Shown here: positions 1-28,453 of the stretch, piece by piece
How the letters are laid out: each line of letters begins with the position of its first letter
Position numbering within the stretch: the stretch's first letter is position 1
NCBI GenBank assembly: GCA_038894255.1
Contig: JAWAPV010000001.1
Span: forward strand, 1 to 28,529
DNA from: Candidatus Bathyarchaeia archaeon
GTDB lineage: Archaea > Thermoproteota > Bathyarchaeia > Bathyarchaeales > Bathycorpusculaceae
Direction: 5' to 3'
DNA: 28,529 bases
Notes under the pieces: model-generated
What the model was told of the DNA's origin: nothing
The model's database searches: none
The model's input: only the letters and a program-made list of their open reading frames with translations
Position numbers and translations under genes: made by a program

Positions 1-1595
1 AAGGTGCTGTCTTTTTCGTTTTCACTCACTGCATCATAAAGGCAGTTTTTTTCTTCATTCCAGAAGTTCTCTGTAAAGCTTTTTTTGGCTTTTTCTGCCA
101 TGCGCGCATATTCTTCAGCTTTTCCTGCTTCCTTGAATTTCTTTGCAAGCAACTCCATTATCTTTAAACTGTTAAACCACAATGCTTGAATTTCAACAGC
201 TTTTCCGCTTCTTGGAGTAACTGGTTTGTCATCTACAACTGTGTCCATCCACGTTAGTTGTGGTCCATGGGAGAGAAGTCCATCGCTGTCTACATGGATG
301 TTGAAGTCTGTTCCTTTCATGTGGCTATCAACGATGTCTTTTAGTGTATTCCACAAGTGGTCTTGCACAAACTTATAGTCACCTGTGTACTTCAGATATT
401 GGAGTAGTGCATGCAAAAACCATAGGGTTGCATCAACAGAATTGTATATTAGGGTTTCTTGAGCTGAATCTGCTATAATGTTTGGGATCAATCCCGCTTT
501 ATAATGGTTTTTGAAATTGAGAAAGATTTTTCTTGCGTTTTCGAATTTTCCCGTAACTAGCGCAAGTCCCGGCAGTGATATGAAGGCGTCTCTGCCCCAG
601 CTTTCAAACCAATGGTAGCCCGCAATTACCGAGTTGTATTCTGGGTTTTTGGCTTTGACGATAAACATGTCAGTGGCGATGGCAATTAGGCTTAGCCACG
701 GGGAGGCGTTTAATTTGCTGTGTGTTTCGTAAAAGTGCGTGAGGAAGTTTTCGTGTCGCGCCATCTCTTTTTCGTATAAGCCTTCCATGTCATAGATGTT
801 GGCCGGCATCGTGTCGATGGTGTTTTGAGCAGTTTCTTGGTTTTCGTGGGCGGCTGCGGCTACAGCGAAGGCTTCCTTTCTATTTGCTTCTACTGCGACT
901 TCGAAGAATCCTGGTTGGTAAGCATCATCTAAGCAGCTTTCGCCGCGTCTGGCTTCTTCTCGATAGTATATTTTTTCAACCCATTTTCCTTCCTGACAGT
1001 ATTTACCGTCAATAATTCTTAATATCAAGGCGAATTTGGGTTCGCTTAAAGTTATGCGCGTTTCGTTTTTTTCGCTTTGCTGGATTGGTTCAGCTGAGAT
1101 TTTCCATCTGCTCGTGACCGAGTGGAAGTGCCTCCAGTTTACGAGAGGGAAAACCCGCATACGAATGTTTAAATTGTTTTTGTTCTGAACTTTGTAAAGC
1201 GTTACAACCGCGTTTTTTTCGCGCGGCATGAAAACTGTTTTTTCTATCTCCACATTCTGCACCGTGTAAACGTATCTTGGGAAAGGCGAAACTGTCACTT
1301 CTGTTAGAAACTGATGTCCTTTTGGGAAGATGTCGTTTTGGTAGTCGTTTGCTCCAAGCGGATAGATGTTGCTTTTTATTTCCACTTCCTCGTCAAGCTT
1401 TTCGAGGCACACTCTTCGGTCGGCAGGCGGGTGAAAAGCTGCAACCAGCAGTCCATGATATTTTCTGGTATTTATGCCCAGTACGGTGGAAGACGCGTAG
1501 CCGCCGAGACCGTTTGTTATAATCCATTCTCTTCTTATCGAGTCTTCAAAGCAGCAGAGCACTTCTCTACTAAGGTTAATGATGGGTACCTTCAT
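1..1595 (-). CDS. Glycogen debranching enzyme (amylo-alpha-1,6-glucosidase, archaeal type); 3' end lies outside the window
   Basis: Not in the ORF track because there is no stop in the window. Manual minus-strand translation from ATG at 1595, abutting the TAG of the DUF89 gene, is open to base 1: MKVPIINLSRE...EEWIITNGLGGYASSTVLGINTRKYHGLLVAA...IAGYHWFESWGRDAFISLPGL...YNSVDATLWF...HGPQLTWMD...GKAVEIQALWFN. Confidence 0.93.
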   Translation of the reverse strand, partial: MKVPIINLSREVLCCFEDSIRREWIITNGLGGYASSTVLGINTRKYHGLLVAAFHPPADRRVCLEKLDEEVEIKSNIYPLGANDYQNDIFPKGHQFLTEVTVSPFPRYVYTVQNVEIEKTVFMPREKNAVVTLYKVQNKNNLNIRMRVFPLVNWRHFHSVTSRWKISAEPIQQSEKNETRITLSEPKFALILRIIDGKYCQEGKWVEKIYYREEARRGESCLDDAYQPGFFEVAVEANRKEAFAVAAAAHENQETAQNTIDTMPANIYDMEGLYEKEMARHENFLTHFYETHSKLNASPWLSLIAIATDMFIVKAKNPEYNSVIAGYHWFESWGRDAFISLPGLALVTGKFENARKIFLNFKNHYKAGLIPNIIADSAQETLIYNSVDATLWFLHALLQYLKYTGDYKFVQDHLWNTLKDIVDSHMKGTDFNIHVDSDGLLSHGPQLTWMDTVVDDKPVTPRSGKAVEIQALWFNSLKIMELLAKKFKEAGKAEEYARMAEKAKKSFTENFWNEEKNCLYDAVSENEKDST

Positions 1596-21085: not shown

Positions 21086-21243
21086 AACCGATGTGTTTAC
21101 TGGCGTTTAAAGGGCGTTTTTGCGGTGTCTTGTGGCGTGGTTTATGTTAAAGATGCTAAAGATTAGCCATGCATATCGCTTATTAAGACTTGCTACACAC
21201 TATATACTGAAAAACGCCACCACAGAAGGGGGACCGCCAACCC

Positions 21244-22809
21244 ACGGTCAGAAAAACCACAAAAAGAACAGCAAACGCACTCGAAAAGCCAGCGGAGCCC
21301 ATAATCATAAGAGAAGAAGGAAAAAAACCAACAATATTCAGAGAAGTCTACCCCATCCAAGAACCATACGTCTACGCCGCAATCATAAAAGAACCAGAAA
21401 CCCAAAAAATTCGCTACGAAATCATCGAACCAACCCTCCAACCCGAAGAAGAAAAACAGCTCCAAACCATCAAAAAATTCCTCATGGAAGAACTCGACGT
21501 AAACCTAAAAGACATAGAAACAAAAGAAAAAGCAGAAAAATACCTCAAAGACAAAACCAAAGAAACAATCAAAAAATACCACATAAAAATCCAACCCGAA
21601 GCCACAGACAAACTCGTGTATTACGTGCTCCGCGACTTCATAGGCTACGGCAAAATCGACCCACTAATGAAAGACCACCTAATCGAAGACATATCCGCCG
21701 ACGGCGTCGGCATCCCCATATACGTCTGGCATAGACTCTACGAGTCTCTACCCACAAACATCCTCTTCAAAGACGCAGCAGAACTCGACTCCTTCATAAT
21801 ACGGCTGGCTTACCTCGCGGGAAAAAACATCTCCATCGCCGCTCCAATCCTCGACGCTTCGCTCCCCGAAGGCAGCCGAGTACAGCTAACTTATGGGAAC
21901 GAGGTGACAAGAAGAGGCTCCACATTCACAATACGAAGGTTCAAAGTAGACCCCCTAACAATCTCCGACCTAATAGCCTTCAAAACACTCTCCTCAGAAA
22001 TGGCCGCCTACTTGTGGTACATAATTGAAAACCGCGCCTCAATAATGGTCGCCGGCGGCGTGGCTGCTGGAAAAACCACTCTTCTAAACTGCCTCTCCAT
22101 GTTCATTAAGCCAGAAATGAAAATAGTAAGCGTCGAAGACACCCAAGAACTGAATCTTCCACACGAAAACTGGATTCCATCCGTTGCCCGCACAGGCTTC
22201 GGGCACGAAGATAGGAAAAGCGGAAACATAACCCTGTTTGACCTGCTGAAAGCTGCGGTGCGGCAAAGACCCGACTACATAATCGTAGGCGAGGTTCGAG
22301 GAGAAGAAGCCTACACGCTTTTCCAGGCCATGGCAACAGGCCACCTCGGCATGAGCACCATCCACGCCGAGTCAGTTGAAGCCGTAATCAACAGGCTAGC
22401 ATCTGAACCCATGAACATACCAAAAACGCTGATAGCCATGACCGACGTCATCATGGTAGTCACCCGAACCGAAATCGAAGGCAGACCCTCTAGAAGAACA
22501 AAAACAACAAACGAAGTGGTGGAGCTTAACCCCAAGACAAGAGAAATAAAAACCAACGAGGTTTTCCGCTGGAACATTAAAGACGACAGCTTCCAATACA
22601 GCGGATACAGCGCTTTACTGGAAAAGCACCAGAAAAAACTTGACATAAGCATGGAAGAGATAACCCGCGAGCTTCGTGCGCGGAAAACGGTTTTAGAGTG
22701 GATGGTGAAACACGGCATCAGACGCCACGGCGAAGTTGCCAACGTCATCAGAGAATACTACGCAAACCCAAACCGCGTTTACCAAAAAGCCAGAGTGGGG
22801 CTGAGATGA
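21244..22809 (+). CDS. Type II/IV secretion system ATPase (ArlI/AapE/TadA-like); start uncertain
   Basis: EVYPIQEPYV..YEIIEPTL N-terminal segment, GYGKIDPLM.D..IEDIS.DG, Walker A GGVAAGKTT, SVEDTQEL, RQRPDYIIVGEVRGEE, TGHLGMSTIHA. The frame is open from 21211 and the first canonical start is ATG 21484. Confidence 0.92.
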   Translation, partial: TVRKTTKRTANALEKPAEPIIIREEGKKPTIFREVYPIQEPYVYAAIIKEPETQKIRYEIIEPTLQPEEEKQLQTIKKFLMEELDVNLKDIETKEKAEKYLKDKTKETIKKYHIKIQPEATDKLVYYVLRDFIGYGKIDPLMKDHLIEDISADGVGIPIYVWHRLYESLPTNILFKDAAELDSFIIRLAYLAGKNISIAAPILDASLPEGSRVQLTYGNEVTRRGSTFTIRRFKVDPLTISDLIAFKTLSSEMAAYLWYIIENRASIMVAGGVAAGKTTLLNCLSMFIKPEMKIVSVEDTQELNLPHENWIPSVARTGFGHEDRKSGNITLFDLLKAAVRQRPDYIIVGEVRGEEAYTLFQAMATGHLGMSTIHAESVEAVINRLASEPMNIPKTLIAMTDVIMVVTRTEIEGRPSRRTKTTNEVVELNPKTREIKTNEVFRWNIKDDSFQYSGYSALLEKHQKKLDISMEEITRELRARKTVLEWMVKHGIRRHGEVANVIREYYANPNRVYQKARVGLR

Positions 22810-23810
22810 AACATAAAAGCGCGCTCAGAAAAATCAAAGCACTATTCACCCAAGCAATAAACAAAATTAAGGCTAGTCGCCAGAAGCTTTTACAAAAGAA
22901 AACAGCCCCGTCGCAGCCAAAAACAAACTTTGCTTTAGGAAGCGTTCAGTCTCTGGCTTACAGCTTTTTTGGAGAAAAAATTGGACGCGTGATGCCTCTT
23001 TTTACTGGGCTGGACGTAAACTTGCAGAGGGCAAAGGTTAAGGTTAATTTTAAAGCGTACGTCAGCTTAACCGTTTTTTCTGCCTTTTTAGCATCTATTG
23101 TAGTATTTGTTTCTGTGCCTCTAATTCTCTATTTCTTTGGTATTCCTACTTTGCCTGCCGTTCTTTTTGGGATTGGAAGTGGTCTTTTCGCTTTTGCGTT
23201 TTCCATCATAGCGTTTTATGGTTATCCTGTTTATCGTGCTGATAAGCTTAAGAGGGATTTAGAAGACGAGTTGCCTTTCACGGCTGGGTATATGGCAATT
23301 CTAACAAGCGCTGGGGTTCCGCCTGAAAAGATATTTTATTCGCTTTCAAACCTAAGTGTTCCGTTGGCAGTATCCGCGGAGGCTAAGGATGTTGTTCGTG
23401 ACGTGAGCCTTTTTGGTAAGGACATAATTTCCGCGCTTGAAGAGTCTTCAAAGCGAACTCCTTCAGAAAGGTTTCGCGAGATGCTGGAAGGCTTCATCGC
23501 AACTATCCATTCTGGAAGCAACACGGCTGCTTATCTTCGCGAGAAATCTAAGGAGTACATGAAGCTTAAGAGGATAGGGTTGAAAAAGTTTTCAGACACC
23601 TTGTCTGTTTTGTCCGAGTTTTACGTGGCTATTCTTTTGACTGGGCCATTGCTTATGGTGATTATGCTGGCGGTTATGGTTATGTTGGGTGGCGGAAACT
23701 TGGGTTTGCTGAGCCCTGAGCTTTTGCTTAGTTTGCTTACTTACATTGGGCTTCCGTTGGGTGCTGTGGTGTTCTTGATAATATTGGACGCGGTTACGCC
23801 GAAGTGGTAG
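22806..23810 (+). CDS. Type II secretion system F (TadC/ArlJ-like) platform protein 1
   Basis: LEDELPF...MAIL.SAGVPPE, GKDIISALE...RTPS..F.E.LEG, TM helices. ATG 22806 overlaps the ATPase stop (ATGA). Confidence 0.88.
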   Translation: MKHKSALRKIKALFTQAINKIKASRQKLLQKKTAPSQPKTNFALGSVQSLAYSFFGEKIGRVMPLFTGLDVNLQRAKVKVNFKAYVSLTVFSAFLASIVVFVSVPLILYFFGIPTLPAVLFGIGSGLFAFAFSIIAFYGYPVYRADKLKRDLEDELPFTAGYMAILTSAGVPPEKIFYSLSNLSVPLAVSAEAKDVVRDVSLFGKDIISALEESSKRTPSERFREMLEGFIATIHSGSNTAAYLREKSKEYMKLKRIGLKKFSDTLSVLSEFYVAILLTGPLLMVIMLAVMVMLGGGNLGLLSPELLLSLLTYIGLPLGAVVFLIILDAVTPKW

Positions 23811-23816
23811 AAGGGT

Positions 23817-24632
23817 ATGCCGAAAGTAGAGAAAAAAGATAAAAAAATCGCTTGGACGGTTTCAGTTTTATTAGCGGTGGCTTTGGTTCTTTTTGCTTTT
23901 TCCAAGTTTGGCACTACCGCAATTTTTGACGAGTTTGTCTTTTTTGCAGTTATGATCGGGGTCTTTCCTGCCGCGGTTCTCAGCTATATTGAATATAGGT
24001 GGAGAAAAGCCATTGACGAGCATTTGCCTGATCTTTTCAGAAGTATCGTTCAGGCTCAAGAGACGGGTATGACGTTGCCTCAGGCTTTGGAGGAAGCTTC
24101 TAAACGTGATTATGGGCCGCTTACTCGGGAGTTGAAGAAAATGACGGCTCAGATTTCGTGGGGGATAAGCTTTGAGGAGGCTTTGGTTGCTTTGGGAAAT
24201 CGGGTTAACACTGTATTGGTGCAGAGGACTGTGCCTATGATTATTGAGGCAAGCCGTTCTGGTGGCCGTGTTGAGAAGGTTTTTGATCCGATGGGCAAGT
24301 TTATTCAGACAACGCTTATGCTTGACAAGGAACGTCGAACCCAAACGAGGCCTTACGTTGCTATAATCTACGTGGCGTTCTTCGTTTTCCTATTCACCGT
24401 TATACTGCTTTTCAACTCGTTTTTCGTGAGTGTGGAAGGTCTCCCCATTCTCGGTTCGGCGGTTGTCTCTACAGAGCAGATGCAGCGCTTGTTTTTCCAC
24501 ATGACCGCCATCCAAGCGTTCTTCAGTGGGCTTGTTGCGGGGAAGATGGGCGAAGGAACCATAAGCGCCGGGTTAAAACACAGTTTAATTCTGATGCTCT
24601 GCGGCTATCTGGCGCTAAAACTTTTCTTGTGA
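23817..24632 (+). CDS. Type II secretion system F (TadC/ArlJ-like) platform protein 2
   Basis: IDEHLPDLFR.I..A.ETGMTL..AL...YGPL..E, SWG.SFEEAL, QAFFSGLVAGKMGEG...AGLKH. Confidence 0.88.
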   Translation: MPKVEKKDKKIAWTVSVLLAVALVLFAFSKFGTTAIFDEFVFFAVMIGVFPAAVLSYIEYRWRKAIDEHLPDLFRSIVQAQETGMTLPQALEEASKRDYGPLTRELKKMTAQISWGISFEEALVALGNRVNTVLVQRTVPMIIEASRSGGRVEKVFDPMGKFIQTTLMLDKERRTQTRPYVAIIYVAFFVFLFTVILLFNSFFVSVEGLPILGSAVVSTEQMQRLFFHMTAIQAFFSGLVAGKMGEGTISAGLKHSLILMLCGYLALKLFL

Positions 24633-24641
24633 GGTGAGCGC

Positions 24642-25058
24642 ATGGCAAGGCTTAAAGAGTTTTGGAGCAACAAAAGGGCCATAACACCTGTTTTAAGCAG
24701 CCTTCTGCTAACTGTTGTTGCTGTTGCCGCCATGGCTCTTGCCACAACCGCGACTTACGTTATTACAGCTAACCTTAGGGAAACAATGAGCGAACGAGTT
24801 GTTATTGAGGACGTGTGGTTTAGCAATTCAACGGGCAACATACACGTGTATTTGCGGAACGTGGGCAAAGTTGCCATTCACGTTTCCGTCGTATACGTGA
24901 ACCACACTTCTCGGTCTTTCAATAAACCTTTCGATTTAGAGCCAAACTATCACGGGTGGCTGAACATTTCAGTCGTCTGGGCATCCAACAGCCTGTATTA
25001 CATTGACATCGTGACCACGAGAGGTACACATGTCGGAGGCTATTACAATGCGCCTTAA
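24642..25058 (+). CDS. Archaeal type IV pilin (class III signal peptide)
   Basis: NKRA|ITPVLSSLLLTVVAVAAMALA; Ig-like C-terminal part (ERVVIEDV..VYLRNVG..IHV..VYVN..IVTTRG). Confidence 0.88.
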   Translation: MARLKEFWSNKRAITPVLSSLLLTVVAVAAMALATTATYVITANLRETMSERVVIEDVWFSNSTGNIHVYLRNVGKVAIHVSVVYVNHTSRSFNKPFDLEPNYHGWLNISVVWASNSLYYIDIVTTRGTHVGGYYNAP

Positions 25059-27465
25059 AAGCGACAAACGAGCCGTCAGCAACGTAATAGTCGTTATGCT
25101 AAGCCTAGTTCTCATAGTTGTCATTGTTGGCAACGTAGTTTTATGGAGCTACCAGATGAACCAGCTTGACATTGAACGCATGCAAGAAAAAGTGCAGCTA
25201 ACCAACGTTACAAGGCTCACCAGTTCCTCGTGGTTCACAGCGCAAAACGAGTTCACCGTCGCCGCGGGCAGCAAAACAAGCGGCACTTTCGCCGACACAA
25301 GATTCATAGACGGCAGTTTTGAGTCTTTCCGAGAAGAAAAAACCCAGTCTTTCAACCCTCAAAACTACGTTTTAGGTGGTTCTACGAAGCACGTTGCGGG
25401 AACCGTTACTGATTTGGCTTCTGACGACTCTTCTTATATGAGCTTCCGCAGCTACCCCAACTACGAAATCAGATACCAAGAAAGCCTTAGCACCTCCATA
25501 ACAGCGAGCACTACCTATCAAGACAAAATTGTGATAAGCTTCACGCCCCAAGCAACTGCCAACTTTTTCATAATCGCCACCGCGGAAGTTCAAGGCTCAA
25601 GCACCTCTTACCAAACCAAAGCGCGTCTGACCGTAAACTCGTCAACACACCAAGAGCTTCTTTACAGAGTCAAGGACACGTCCGACTGGTATCCCTTCTG
25701 CGCGCTAAAACGCATTAGCATGACTGAAAACACAAACTACGAAATCAAAATTCAATACTGCACCAGCAACACAGCTGCCACATCCTCAATCAGAAACGCA
25801 AGACTAATTATTACAAGCTTAAGCTCTGAATATGCTGAAAGCGAACCCCTCTCAACCACCGCCAGCACCGTATGGCAAGACAAAATGGTTTTATCCCTCA
25901 CGCCCCCAGCAGACGGAGAATACCTACTCATAGCGTCAGCAAACTACATGGGCTCAAGCACCAATTACAACACAAGAATAAGGCTTCTTCAAGACGACAC
26001 AACAGTGCACGTAGAAACGACTGGAAGACCAGGCTCTGGAACCACGGCGAACTACTACACTTTCGGCGTTATGAGAAAAGTAAGCCTTGACGCTTCGCCG
26101 CACACTTTCAAAATCCAATACTGCACCTCAAACGCCATTGCAACAGCCGGCATAAACCACGCGCATATACTTGCCGTAAGACTTGACCAGTTTGACAACA
26201 CCCACTATGCTGAAAGTGAAGCAGAGTCGGCTCCTGCCGCTCCAAACACATGGTATGATAAAGTCACGAACACCTACCTTGCTGACGCGGCTGATTACTT
26301 GATAATAGGCTCACTTGCTTACGCCTCTGGCTCCGCGTCTTACTCGGTCGGCATAACTTTCCAAGCTTCCTCTTCTACCATACAATCACCCCTTGTGGAG
26401 CATCGTGATGCAACCACGTACGAATCCGCCTTCTTTATGACCAAACAAGCCCTAAGCGGCGGAAGCACCACTGACAAACTAAGCTGGATGGGCGAAAGTA
26501 CAAGTGCAAGGGTTCGAAACGCTCGACTAATCTCGTGTAAACTGCCCGTCTTGACGCAAACCGCCGAAATCGAATTCGTCGGCAATTCAAATACGCAAAA
26601 CTGGACCCAGCTCGAATGGACAATAGACTCTTCATACACCACGGCAGACGTCGCAACCACCTTCCAACTCTACAATTACCAAACAAGCCAATACCCAACC
26701 AGCGGAGATGGATACCTATCAAACACGATCGGCCTAACAGACGTAACAACAAACCAGACAATAACCTCTGACCCAAACATCTTCAGAGACGCCGCTGGAG
26801 GCTGGAAAATAAAAATAAAAGGAGTCAAATCCGCCGACACGCCGTTTGAGCTTAAAGTTGACTGGGTCGAATTCAAAGCAACAACCTCTGACACCTATCA
26901 ACTCAACATAGCTAACAGCTTCCTGCTAGACACCGCCACCTACCCGCTAGATTACGTAAACGGAATTGAGCTACTTATCAGATACAACGTTTCAGAAGAC
27001 GCTAAAAAATGGTTTCTGAAAATGTACAACTGGACCGCGGCAAGCTTCAGCGACACAGGATTTAACAGCACCTCAGGGAGCCAGCCGATAACAGGCGCTT
27101 GGAACGAATACGCCATCCAAATAACCGATGACTGGAAAAGCTACGTAAACGCTAACGACACGGTGCTTGTGCAGTTTTACGGCGAAGGAACCAGCCCAAA
27201 CCAGACGCTGGTCGGAGTGGATTTTGTTGGAGTAAGAGCGATCTTGGATGGCGCATGTTTTGAGCTGAAGAACTCTAGCCCGTTTACCACGCACGTAGTA
27301 TCTATTTGGCTGCTTAACGCTACGTATCATCAACGCTACGTCGCCAACTTTTTTGTTAACTCAGGCGAAACCGCGACCTACATACGTGTAGACATTAGGC
27401 TACCTAAAGATGATTTTATAGCCAAAGTAACAACCGAAAAAGGCAACGTCTCAATCTTTCCGTAG
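25048..27465 (+). CDS. Large multidomain type IV pilin-like adhesin (~805 aa)
   Basis: DKRA|VSNVIVVMLSLVLIVVIV class III signal; GGAGG at 25035-25039 supports ATG 25048. Thr/Ser-rich beta domains with internal repeats. Confidence 0.85.
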   Translation: MRLKSDKRAVSNVIVVMLSLVLIVVIVGNVVLWSYQMNQLDIERMQEKVQLTNVTRLTSSSWFTAQNEFTVAAGSKTSGTFADTRFIDGSFESFREEKTQSFNPQNYVLGGSTKHVAGTVTDLASDDSSYMSFRSYPNYEIRYQESLSTSITASTTYQDKIVISFTPQATANFFIIATAEVQGSSTSYQTKARLTVNSSTHQELLYRVKDTSDWYPFCALKRISMTENTNYEIKIQYCTSNTAATSSIRNARLIITSLSSEYAESEPLSTTASTVWQDKMVLSLTPPADGEYLLIASANYMGSSTNYNTRIRLLQDDTTVHVETTGRPGSGTTANYYTFGVMRKVSLDASPHTFKIQYCTSNAIATAGINHAHILAVRLDQFDNTHYAESEAESAPAAPNTWYDKVTNTYLADAADYLIIGSLAYASGSASYSVGITFQASSSTIQSPLVEHRDATTYESAFFMTKQALSGGSTTDKLSWMGESTSARVRNARLISCKLPVLTQTAEIEFVGNSNTQNWTQLEWTIDSSYTTADVATTFQLYNYQTSQYPTSGDGYLSNTIGLTDVTTNQTITSDPNIFRDAAGGWKIKIKGVKSADTPFELKVDWVEFKATTSDTYQLNIANSFLLDTATYPLDYVNGIELLIRYNVSEDAKKWFLKMYNWTAASFSDTGFNSTSGSQPITGAWNEYAIQITDDWKSYVNANDTVLVQFYGEGTSPNQTLVGVDFVGVRAILDGACFELKNSSPFTTHVVSIWLLNATYHQRYVANFFVNSGETATYIRVDIRLPKDDFIAKVTTEKGNVSIFP
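25474..26544 (+). repeat. Three tandem ~120-aa beta-domain repeats within the large pilin
   Basis: YQES..S.TASTTYQDK / YAESE..STTASTVWQDK / YAESE..S..A.NTWYDK; KIQYCTSN occurs in repeats 1 and 2, RNARLI in repeats 1 and 3. Confidence 0.8.
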
Positions 27466-27472
27466 AAAAGGG

Positions 27473-28453
27473 CTAGCTTGTCATGCTTTCCTTTAAGCTT
27501 CTTACGGCTTCTTTTTCGTTTTTCGCCTCTATAACCTGAATATGATAAAGCTCAGCCATTTTCTTGCCATTTTCGCTTAGCTGGGGGATAACGATTAGGT
27601 AAGCCTTGTGCGGCGAAACATCAAAAATCTTGGCAAACAACGCAATGACGGGCTGCTCAGACACTACGGGTTCGCTGGAAGCCGTAACATCCACCACAGT
27701 AATCTTGCGAGTCACTTCTCCCTTGCTTGCAACTATGTCAAACAAGTGGTTAGCGCCAGACTTGCCCTTAAGATAAGCCGGGCTTTCCACCTCAAACCCT
27801 TGCTCCTCAAAAAACTCCTTAATCGGAGCAATCACAATCCACCCAATCTTGGCTTCTCCCCGAGCCTCTTCACTCAAAGTGTAAGAATAAACATTCTCAA
27901 TCCTTATTTCTTCAAACGAAAAGTTTTCTTTGCAGTCACGGCAAAAATGCGAAGAAACAGGAATGTCAAAACTTCTCTTGCAATCATTACACGTACACCA
28001 CACACCCGCCTTCCTATAATCCACATCCAGCTTCCTAAGCTCATCGTGACATTTGGGACAAGAAAGTTTGGCTCCCGCGGCAAAGTTTTCTTCAACATCC
28101 ATGTACCCGCACTTGACATGTTCAATTAACGAGCTTTTTCTTATGTCAAAAGACTTGCAATAGGGGCAGCAATAGCGAACTGAAACATTAGCGGTGTTAC
28201 ATTGCGGGCAGTAAATCACCTTATCATAAAGCTTCCGTCTCAATATCCCGGCGCTGTAAAGTTTGTTCAAAAAATCGTCAGCCATCTGGCTATCGCCCAC
28301 AATGGCTTCCACTTCGGGATAGCGGTATCCAAGTTTAGGGTCAAAAACAGGGTTGAGCTCTTTAATTTCTCCATTAAGAAATTTACTTATCAAAGTCTGC
28401 GTATCGCGACCTTTATACAATTCCTGTCTTTCCACTTTGCTGGTTGCCGTCAT
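27473..28453 (-). CDS. TackOD1-like multi-Zn-ribbon domain fused to a C-terminal PD-(D/E)xK/Mrr-like fold
   Basis: CPQC..CCPYC..IEHVKCGY..CPKC..CTCNDC..F..P..FCRDC, followed by GFEVE...LKGKSGANHLFDIVA. Confidence 0.75.
   Translation of the reverse strand: MTATSKVERQELYKGRDTQTLISKFLNGEIKELNPVFDPKLGYRYPEVEAIVGDSQMADDFLNKLYSAGILRRKLYDKVIYCPQCNTANVSVRYCCPYCKSFDIRKSSLIEHVKCGYMDVEENFAAGAKLSCPKCHDELRKLDVDYRKAGVWCTCNDCKRSFDIPVSSHFCRDCKENFSFEEIRIENVYSYTLSEEARGEAKIGWIVIAPIKEFFEEQGFEVESPAYLKGKSGANHLFDIVASKGEVTRKITVVDVTASSEPVVSEQPVIALFAKIFDVSPHKAYLIVIPQLSENGKKMAELYHIQVIEAKNEKEAVRSLKESMTS

Follow-up and report, generated by a model that had tools for sequence, protein, structure and literature searches.

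A large type IV pilin of a Bathyarchaeia archaeon with recursively nested domains inserted into its β-sandwich

The stretch of DNA analysed here (the window) comprises 28,529 nucleotides of Candidatus Bathyarchaeia archaeon (GenBank assembly GCA_038894255.1, contig JAWAPV010000001.1, positions 1 to 28,529 of the forward strand) and harbors a five-gene pilus locus, whose genes follow each other on the + strand in the order T2SSE assembly ATPase, two T2SSF platform proteins, a pilin of 138 residues and a pilin of 811 residues. The latter, denoted the large pilin in the following, is the second pilin gene at the 3′ end of the locus and is encoded by the open reading frame (ORF) 25030-27465 (+). 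An insert of 675 residues is located in the turn between the first two strands of its pilin β-sandwich and is built in a recursive manner: a domain B interrupts a domain A behind the third strand of the latter, and three tandem repeats in turn interrupt B at the equivalent place. The initial annotation of this DNA had the gene start at 25048, which corresponds to Met7; the ATG at 25030 is favored instead, as the longer N-terminus is conserved among homologues. The residue numbers given in that annotation already count from 25030, and the motifs quoted there are indeed found at their positions, namely EKVQLTNV at residues 53-60, SGTFADTRFIDGSFESFRE at 84-102, AGTVTDLASDDSSYMSFRS at 123-141, and the C-terminal blocks.

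The N-terminal part of the pilin core (residues 1-63; 25030..25218; all coordinates of the large pilin refer to the + strand) is composed of a basic leader ending in KRA (residues 13-15), a hydrophobic α-helix and the first β-strand, and shares 64-70% identity with uninserted pilins of 138 residues. In an AlphaFold2 model of the large pilin the helix extends over residues 2-52 and the strand over residues 55-65. The junction between leader and helix, where RLKSDKRA is followed by VSNVIVVMLSLVLIVVIVGNVVLW, is of the class III type with cleavage predicted, and is nearly invariant in 66 orthologues. Next come the N-terminal strands of domain A (residues 64-103; 25219..25338), assigned by alignment with the shorter homologue P0294 and by the fold of the P0294 model, and the N-terminal strands of domain B (residues 104-143; 25339..25458), assigned by structural alignments with carbohydrate-binding modules (CBMs) and 9eui_D that span residues 104..619. 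The centre is formed by a head of three tandem jelly-roll repeats (residues 144-507; 25459..26550), as inferred from profile comparison with hhalign and from matches to single-chain C1q/TNF trimers. It is followed in reverse order by the C-terminal part of B (residues 508-619; 26551..26886; structural alignments, homologue alignments and a module hidden Markov model, HMM), the C-terminal part of A (residues 620-738; 26887..27243; Pfam PF14741 as well as alignment and fold search with P0294) and the C-terminal β-sandwich strands of the pilin core (residues 739-811 and the stop codon; 27244..27465), which are 48-51% identical to residues 64-135 of uninserted pilins and match the archaeal pilin structure 8fk7.

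The strongest evidence for the nesting is a natural deletion series within a set of 388 proteins, collected in homologue searches for shorter and longer relatives. P0376 and P0383 (138-140 residues) correspond to residues 1-63 and 739-810 of the large pilin with 64-70% and 48-51% identity, respectively. P0294 (294 residues) aligns to residues 3-102 and then directly to 620-810, and P0203 and P0241 (about 290-300 residues) hold B alone inside the pilin. In P0096 and P0103 (about 610 residues) all halves of A and B are kept and an unrelated domain of 162 residues replaces the three repeats, P0119 and P0115 (869 and 1041 residues) possess the same shell around a centre of 440-600 residues, and P0090 and P0084 (about 970 residues) have one extra nested level. 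P0099, P0105, P0109 and P0117 (1250-1400 residues) align to residues 97-619 only, i.e. to B together with the three repeats (B[RRR]), the alignments of P0099 and P0109 beginning at residues 97-105. These four are not pilins; their B[RRR] unit is placed behind a Sec-type signal and before cadherin/PKD/Ig domains and a C-terminal anchor. The borders between core, A, B and head are fixed by this series. The split of domain A, read originally from motifs in its two halves, is seen directly in P0294, and that of domain B in P0203 and P0241 as well as in the non-pilin P0099.

A B-plus-triple-repeat unit was also observed in a Sec-type surface protein of 1346 residues on a Bathyarchaeia-type contig (L008:1-10149). 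Cohesin, dockerin, PKD and CARDB domains are encoded by genes close to it, a hint of an assembly on the cell surface that resembles a cellulosome. As a separate matter of annotation, several of the uninserted pilins P0379-P0388 (138-140 residues) bear the label 'Na+-transporting NADH:ubiquinone oxidoreductase subunit NqrC' in one source; the hydrophobic N-terminal helix has almost certainly misled the annotation.

A census of the 388 collected proteins with module HMMs depicts about 41 architecture classes among 247 complete pilins; the HMM of the C-terminal part of B alone detects 250 copies in 205 of the collected proteins. In every one of the 247 complete pilins the module halves are mirror-ordered, the N-terminal halves standing in order and the C-terminal halves reversed. 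An alternation of the type bN bC bN bC was never seen, which argues for nesting and against tandem duplication. The deepest nest seen is that of P0134, a distant pilin of 1689 residues with a KARRG-type leader, in which five N-terminal halves of B (318-521), a centre of 430 residues, five C-terminal halves of B (953-1522) and the pilin C-terminus succeed each other. Uninterrupted runs of the head repeat contain three units in 147 of 156 cases, one in the remaining nine, and never two or four, consistent with a unit that has to complete a ring of three. At least nine sequence-unrelated cassettes can stand at the centre in place of the triple repeat; for the alternative cassettes of P0096, P0119, P0161 and P0155 no Pfam family was found.

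The AlphaFold2 model of the large pilin, calculated from the alignment of 66 sequences, has a mean predicted local distance difference test score (pLDDT) of 88.5 and a predicted template modelling score (pTM) of 0.68. On this model 8fk7_A, a flagellar-like archaeal type IV pilus subunit from Pyrobaculum calidifontis, is aligned with 125 of its 136 residues across residues 8..811 (Z 11.1, root-mean-square deviation (rmsd) 3.5 Å, 18% identity). An independent AlphaFold model of P0294, the pilin containing A only (pLDDT 91), gives the same picture, with 8fk7_A extending across residues 9..294 (Z 11.3) and 6w8u_A at Z 8.9. The sequence profile of the uninserted pilins likewise matches 8fk7 (E 0.0054), which is the best match of the core in both structure and sequence. 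Shared motifs are located in the first strand, the second strand and the VTxRG strand at the C-terminus; 8fk7 itself is a plain pilin of 144 residues lacking any insert. In addition to possessing the leader, the long hydrophobic helix and the archaeal-pilin β-sandwich, the large pilin is encoded together with an assembly ATPase and platform proteins, as expected of a pilin.

That the pilin fold is split had been deduced from its likeness to the small pilin encoded directly upstream. The split itself is borne out by the uninserted homologues and by the alignment of 8fk7, while the direct match between the two pilins is marginal: BLAST yields nothing significant, and hhalign gives an E-value of 0.005, colinear across the join. 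Their kinship is rescued by 8fk7, which is matched by both families (E 5e-5 for the small pilin, E 0.0054 for the uninserted relatives of the large one), and the blocks common to the small pilin, the uninserted relatives and 8fk7 are those on which the initial annotation had relied.

Domain B of the model resembles CBM folds, which align with 125-146 residues across 104..619 and skip the 364-residue head. Since the C-terminal part of B comprises 112 residues, part of each of these alignments must come from residues 104-143. The matches to B include CBM4-2, CBM61, CBM16 and a baseplate protein of phage phi812 (Z 10.4-14.8). In P0294 domain A forms one contiguous piece, which the model likewise folds into a CBM-like jelly roll. 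Its best structural matches coincide with those of B, with Z 12.6-14.8 for 9euf_H/9eui_D and Z of about 10-11 for CBM4-2, CBM61 and CBM16. The assignment to the β-jelly-roll CBM fold (CBM4/16/22/61-like; Z 10.4-11.2 over 125-134 residues for B, Z 9.6-10.9 for A) holds at the level of the fold only. For the C-terminal region of A, Pfam reports PF14741 (GH114_assoc) at residues 611-724 with 23 bits against a cut-off of 22; for B no Pfam family was found.

Both domains show the same order of elements before the insertion (strand, strand, short helix, strand) and are opened at an equivalent point. The common origin of A and B assumed in the initial annotation is probable, not proven, and it rests mainly on the shared fold and the equivalent insertion site, not on sequence, where the similarity is marginal. 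The N-terminal strand motifs match in profile comparison with E 3.4e-4, and the C-terminal parts give E 1.8e-4 at 49% probability over 74 colinear columns with broader profiles; with profiles of the 66 close orthologues, hhalign detects no signal between the C-terminal halves (probability 1-2%).

The three repeats of the head (R1, residues 144-265; R2, 266-388; R3, 389-507) escape a self-BLAST of the 811-residue protein, which finds no repeats, and profile methods are needed to reveal them. Slices of the 66-orthologue alignment compared by hhalign give E-values of 3e-31 (R1-R2), 8e-18 (R2-R3) and 3e-13 (R1-R3), and the corresponding global identities of 42, 30 and 28% lie at z 19.7, 7.1 and 6.6 relative to shuffled sequences. 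The three tandem repeats of about 120 residues postulated at the centre of the protein are hence real. Residues 143-507 superpose on a Cbln1 C1q trimer and on the C1q, adiponectin and APRIL-BAFF trimers that were engineered as single chains, with Z 24.8-26.6 (rmsd 3.5-3.6 Å over 313-338 residues). Single repeats match Photorhabdus PLTL, Burkholderia BC2L-C-nt, Pgp3 and C1q-like proteins of the Bacillus exosporium at Z 10-13, the TNF-like lectins PLTL and BC2L-C-nt being found at about 13. The rise of Z from about 13 to about 26 indicates that the relative packing of the three repeats is trimer-like, beyond the fold alone. In the model, the head is accordingly a predicted single-chain pseudo-trimer of the C1q/TNF-like type, as had been guessed, with Z 25-26.6 to the single-chain trimers.

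Each head repeat thus has the same jelly roll as C1q/TNF-like trimers, the N-terminal domain of BC2L-C, PLTL, Bacillus BclA/BxpB/ExsF and Chlamydia Pgp3, with similar trimer packing, and many of the prokaryotic members are lectins or surface and adhesion proteins. These systems are homo- or heterotrimers of separate chains, and their single-chain entries in the Protein Data Bank are engineered, whereas in the large pilin three diverged repeats (28-42% identity) are naturally fused. The single-chain triple is not unique to the large pilin: a structure search of the ESM Atlas returns the whole head with a template modelling score of 0.89 over 357 residues from a cluster of 431-residue proteins, mostly from tailed viruses, and stand-alone and fused triples occur in uncharacterised proteins of the AlphaFold DB. 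A feature search of the Atlas connects the head to clusters of the Bc2l-C_N lectin family (0.92), which is a lead only. Such a single-chain triple head appears to be undescribed.

Model bias has to be considered at this point, as AlphaFold may favor known trimer packings, and the BLAST searches of the protein against itself and against the small pilin came back empty. The matches between N- and C-terminal motifs could then be chance or bias, with the domains lying one behind the other like beads on a string. This is hardly credible. In natural homologues no segment separates the two halves of a pair, the identity amounting to 40-70% on either side of the join, the mirror order extends to all complete pilins without a single bN bC bN bC, and two independent models agree. 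The linear arrangement named beforehand as the outcome that would overturn the nesting is not found, since the pilin fold spans residues 8..811 and the CBM folds span 104..619.

The inserts appear to have been exchanged at one chromosomal slot. In relatives the order ABC-CbiQ-ATPase-T2SSF-T2SSF-pilin-[pilin of 138, 294, 609 or 811 residues]-TackOD1 is conserved, including an overlap of the two pilin genes, and the flanking proteins of the loci with 138-, 294- and 609-residue pilins are all 62-84% identical to those of the window. Within the same GTDB family a match is found in 66 of 81 species genomes; the open frames that include the two ends of the core measure between about 142 and 1067 residues, and the full 811-type is present in about ten genomes. 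On a tree of the pilin core (about 130 columns, FastTree supports, eight architecture classes) at least 25 architecture changes are required at a branch support of ≥95 and at least 45 at ≥90, compared to 61 and 101 for shuffled labels. These counts are rough and represent lower bounds from soft polytomies; they replace hard-polytomy counts, which rose upon collapsing of weak branches. They point to repeated gain, loss or replacement, not to one ancient event. The syntenic length variants, the roughly 41 architectures and the changes on the core tree together support the earlier description of the adhesin as probably swappable.

The remaining genes of the locus belong to a minimal pilus assembly system. 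The assembly ATPase (T2SSE/PilB-like, 21211..22809 (+), Pfam T2SSE E 3.8e-37) was listed as an ORF of 441 residues with an ATG at 21484 (21484-22809), and its conserved N-terminal region continues in frame upstream: the 91 codons of 21211-21483 contain no stop, and their translation shares 53-64% identity with the start of the ATPases of relatives, which are called at 516-520 residues. ATG, GTG and TTG are absent from 21211-21483, where only ATA, ATC and ATT codons are available; the start is either non-canonical or lost. A frameshift was rejected as an explanation, the overlapping ORF of 204 residues (21120-21734) being a spurious, highly basic low-complexity frame with runs of R, K, H, N, P and T. 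The two platform proteins (T2SSF/TadC-like) are encoded at 22698-23810 and 23817-24632 (+; Pfam T2SSF E 3e-15 and 3e-18). The GTG start listed for the first of these two genes creates an overlap of 112 nt with the ATPase gene and adds a basic low-complexity N-terminus; the real start is probably near 22803, since orthologues have 318-335 residues. The small pilin (138 residues, 24642..25058, +) belongs to a different pilin family and matches pilin 8fk7 with residues 12-135 (phmmer E 5e-5). The last 29 nt of its gene lie within the beginning of the large pilin gene. A pilin-pilin overlap of 26-29 nt is kept in the loci of relatives, and the two pilins are probably co-translated.

Further upstream of the locus, ECF-type ABC (ATP-binding cassette) and CbiQ genes are located. 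On the other side, a gene for a TackOD1-domain protein that lacks a receiver domain (27473-28453, −; Pfam E 1e-40) runs towards the large pilin gene, leaving a gap of 7 nt. Its position is the same in all three loci of relatives examined, irrespective of the pilin length. The TackOD1 protein may be a regulator or partner of the pilus. The named database relatives of the large pilin all stem from Bathyarchaeia. Hot-spring metagenomes of two studies hold near-identical DNA, one contig set being identical and the other differing by about 40 substitutions and no indels. In a second hot-spring sample contigs were observed that match positions 25019-25190, the conserved 5′ part of the pilin, with 85-95% identity and then continue with unlike sequence, as expected if co-occurring relatives carry other inserts behind the same pilin N-terminus.

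In order to place the large pilin among known systems, it was compared to the bacterial modular pilins, for which Raynaud et al. 2021 (PMC8179133) serves as reference. The definition given there, a pilin and an extra functional module that is not specific to pili in one polypeptide, applies to the large pilin. Many architectures are established in bacteria, and lectin-type modules are common. In Streptococcus sanguinis PilB (vWA) and PilC (lectin), in CofB of enterotoxigenic Escherichia coli (ETEC) and in Vibrio cholerae TcpB a small pilin carrier presents a bulky module, as is the case here, and CofB and TcpB present a threefold-symmetric tip. The modules of these pilins are appended at the C-terminus by a linker, while in the large pilin they lie between residues 63 and 739, thus in the first β-hairpin and recursively nested. 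In this respect it conforms to the exceptions described in the same source, the minor pilins Thermus thermophilus ComZ and GspK of the type II secretion system (T2SS), whose module is inserted in the pilin β-sheet, so that the pilin fold is discontinuous, and which are thought to be located at the tip. As far as described there, ComZ and GspK are bacterial and have one insertion level (a β-solenoid or an α-domain), and neither a reusable socket domain nor the swapping of cassettes at a single locus is evident for them; IPR012902, the motif used in the census of modular pilins in that article, is bacterial too. Where threefold heads occur, they are made of one chain in the large pilin and of a homotrimer of pilins in the bacterial systems.

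A more distant parallel is provided by bacterial flagellin, in which the D0/D1 halves form the polymerising core and enclose the variable, outward-facing D2/D3 domains, every subunit carrying the outer domains. The split polymerising core with a nested, exchangeable middle is alike in both; fold and assembly system are unrelated. In the literature searched we found no archaeal example of such a pilin architecture, no recursive insertion via a reusable socket domain, no natural single-chain C1q/TNF-like head and no documented length polymorphism at one orthologous pilin slot.

Taken together, the gene probably encodes a modular, exchangeable type IV pilin adhesin of hot-spring Bathyarchaeia, of which we infer the binding function and the place in the filament. 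The leader would be cleaved by a class III signal peptidase, after which the ATPase and platform proteins of the locus would assemble the helix, along with the 138-residue pilin, into a pilus. The bulky subunit would reside at the tip or sparsely along the fibre, a position which we favor by analogy with the bacterial modular pilins. The nested jelly rolls would hold the lectin-like head off the filament, allowing it to bind a surface ligand, be it a glycan or not; in view of the folds in the model, which resemble lectins and CBMs, a glycan is most likely involved. Exchange of head and stalk between lineages would alter binding specificity or reach.

The position in the fibre could also be a different one, with the large protein as major or co-major pilin along the whole length, resulting in a thick 'bottle-brush' pilus with an outer layer of nested domains, comparable to the D2/D3 domains of flagellin. 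The uninserted version at the same locus is sized like the first pilin (138 vs 139 residues), the overlap of the pilin genes suggests co-translation, and the insert leaves the core via a single hairpin turn, a geometry compatible with a domain pointing outwards. On every subunit of a narrow archaeal pilus, however, an insert of 75 kDa would be crowded, and for bacterial modular pilins such clashes have led to models with the subunit at the tip (PMC8179133). Moreover, the insert is lost or grown to more than 1000 residues among relatives with unchanged machinery, which is easier to tolerate in a rare subunit. We therefore regard this arrangement as unlikely.

It is more improbable still that the protein acts outside any pilus, as a surface protein comparable to the sugar-binding proteins of the Sulfolobus bindosome. 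Its class-III-type helix would then anchor it in the membrane or in a short pseudopilus, and it would capture polysaccharide near the cell. Folds of the CBM-like and lectin-like kind would suit substrate capture, and the B[RRR] unit does occur on anchored non-pilin surface proteins beside cohesin and dockerin genes. Contrary to this proposal, the core comprises a complete pilin fold, and the pilin that it matches forms filaments; the operon is a minimal pilus operon without a sugar transporter of its own, the upstream ABC/CbiQ genes encoding ECF-type energy-coupling components. In relatives, furthermore, the same slot is filled by the uninserted pilin of 138 residues, which has no binding domain.

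Several observations weigh against the reading of the large pilin as a pilus adhesin. A prepilin peptidase (PF01478) was not found in the 183 contigs of this genome (91% complete), while it is present in 20 of 20 relatives searched. In the head, Pfam lectin, C1q, TNF and Bc2l-C_N families give no match, and hmmscan of residues 140-510 at E-values up to 0.1 returns only PA14, Novirhabdo_Nv and YmaF, all under their own cut-offs; binding by the head is consequently argued from its fold alone. The CBM-like Z values of 10-11 are just moderately above the stated background of the search tool, and contacts between half segments were read indirectly from the aligned ranges of structural alignments. 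The RNA-library signal consists of a single contig of 226 nt with one mismatch, possibly a carry-over of DNA; the comparison with metagenomes and RNA libraries used assembled contigs and hence gives neither an expression level nor transcript ends.

The A/B-type domain acts as a 'socket': the corresponding site at this chromosomal locus is empty in some relatives, and in others it is filled by A, B, A[B], different cassettes or as many as five B copies nested in each other. As a tentative extension, for which we would give slightly less than even chances, the A/B jelly roll may be a self-similar socket with one permissive loop that accepts either its own copy or any folded cassette with adjacent termini. 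Recursion would then set the length of the stalk (0 to at least 5 sockets) below a swappable pilus head. Sec-type surface proteins would have the socket-plus-head units in common with the pilins, and tailed viruses the single-chain triple head.

Next to nothing is known of the adhesins of archaeal pili, and the Bathyarchaeia, which are abundant, have mostly escaped cultivation. A putative binding head that can be recognized from the sequence of a pilin offers a concrete handle on what these organisms attach to. The head itself, as a natural single-chain C1q/TNF trimer, is of the kind that engineers had built by hand, and the socket domains could serve as scaffolds for the display of folded domains on filaments. 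With one slot occupied by proteins from 138 to more than 1000 residues, the locus amounts to a clean natural experiment on how proteins evolve when domains are inserted repeatedly. If the proposal of a recursive socket is true, it would constitute a natural domain-insertion toolkit and a new principle of type IV filament diversification.

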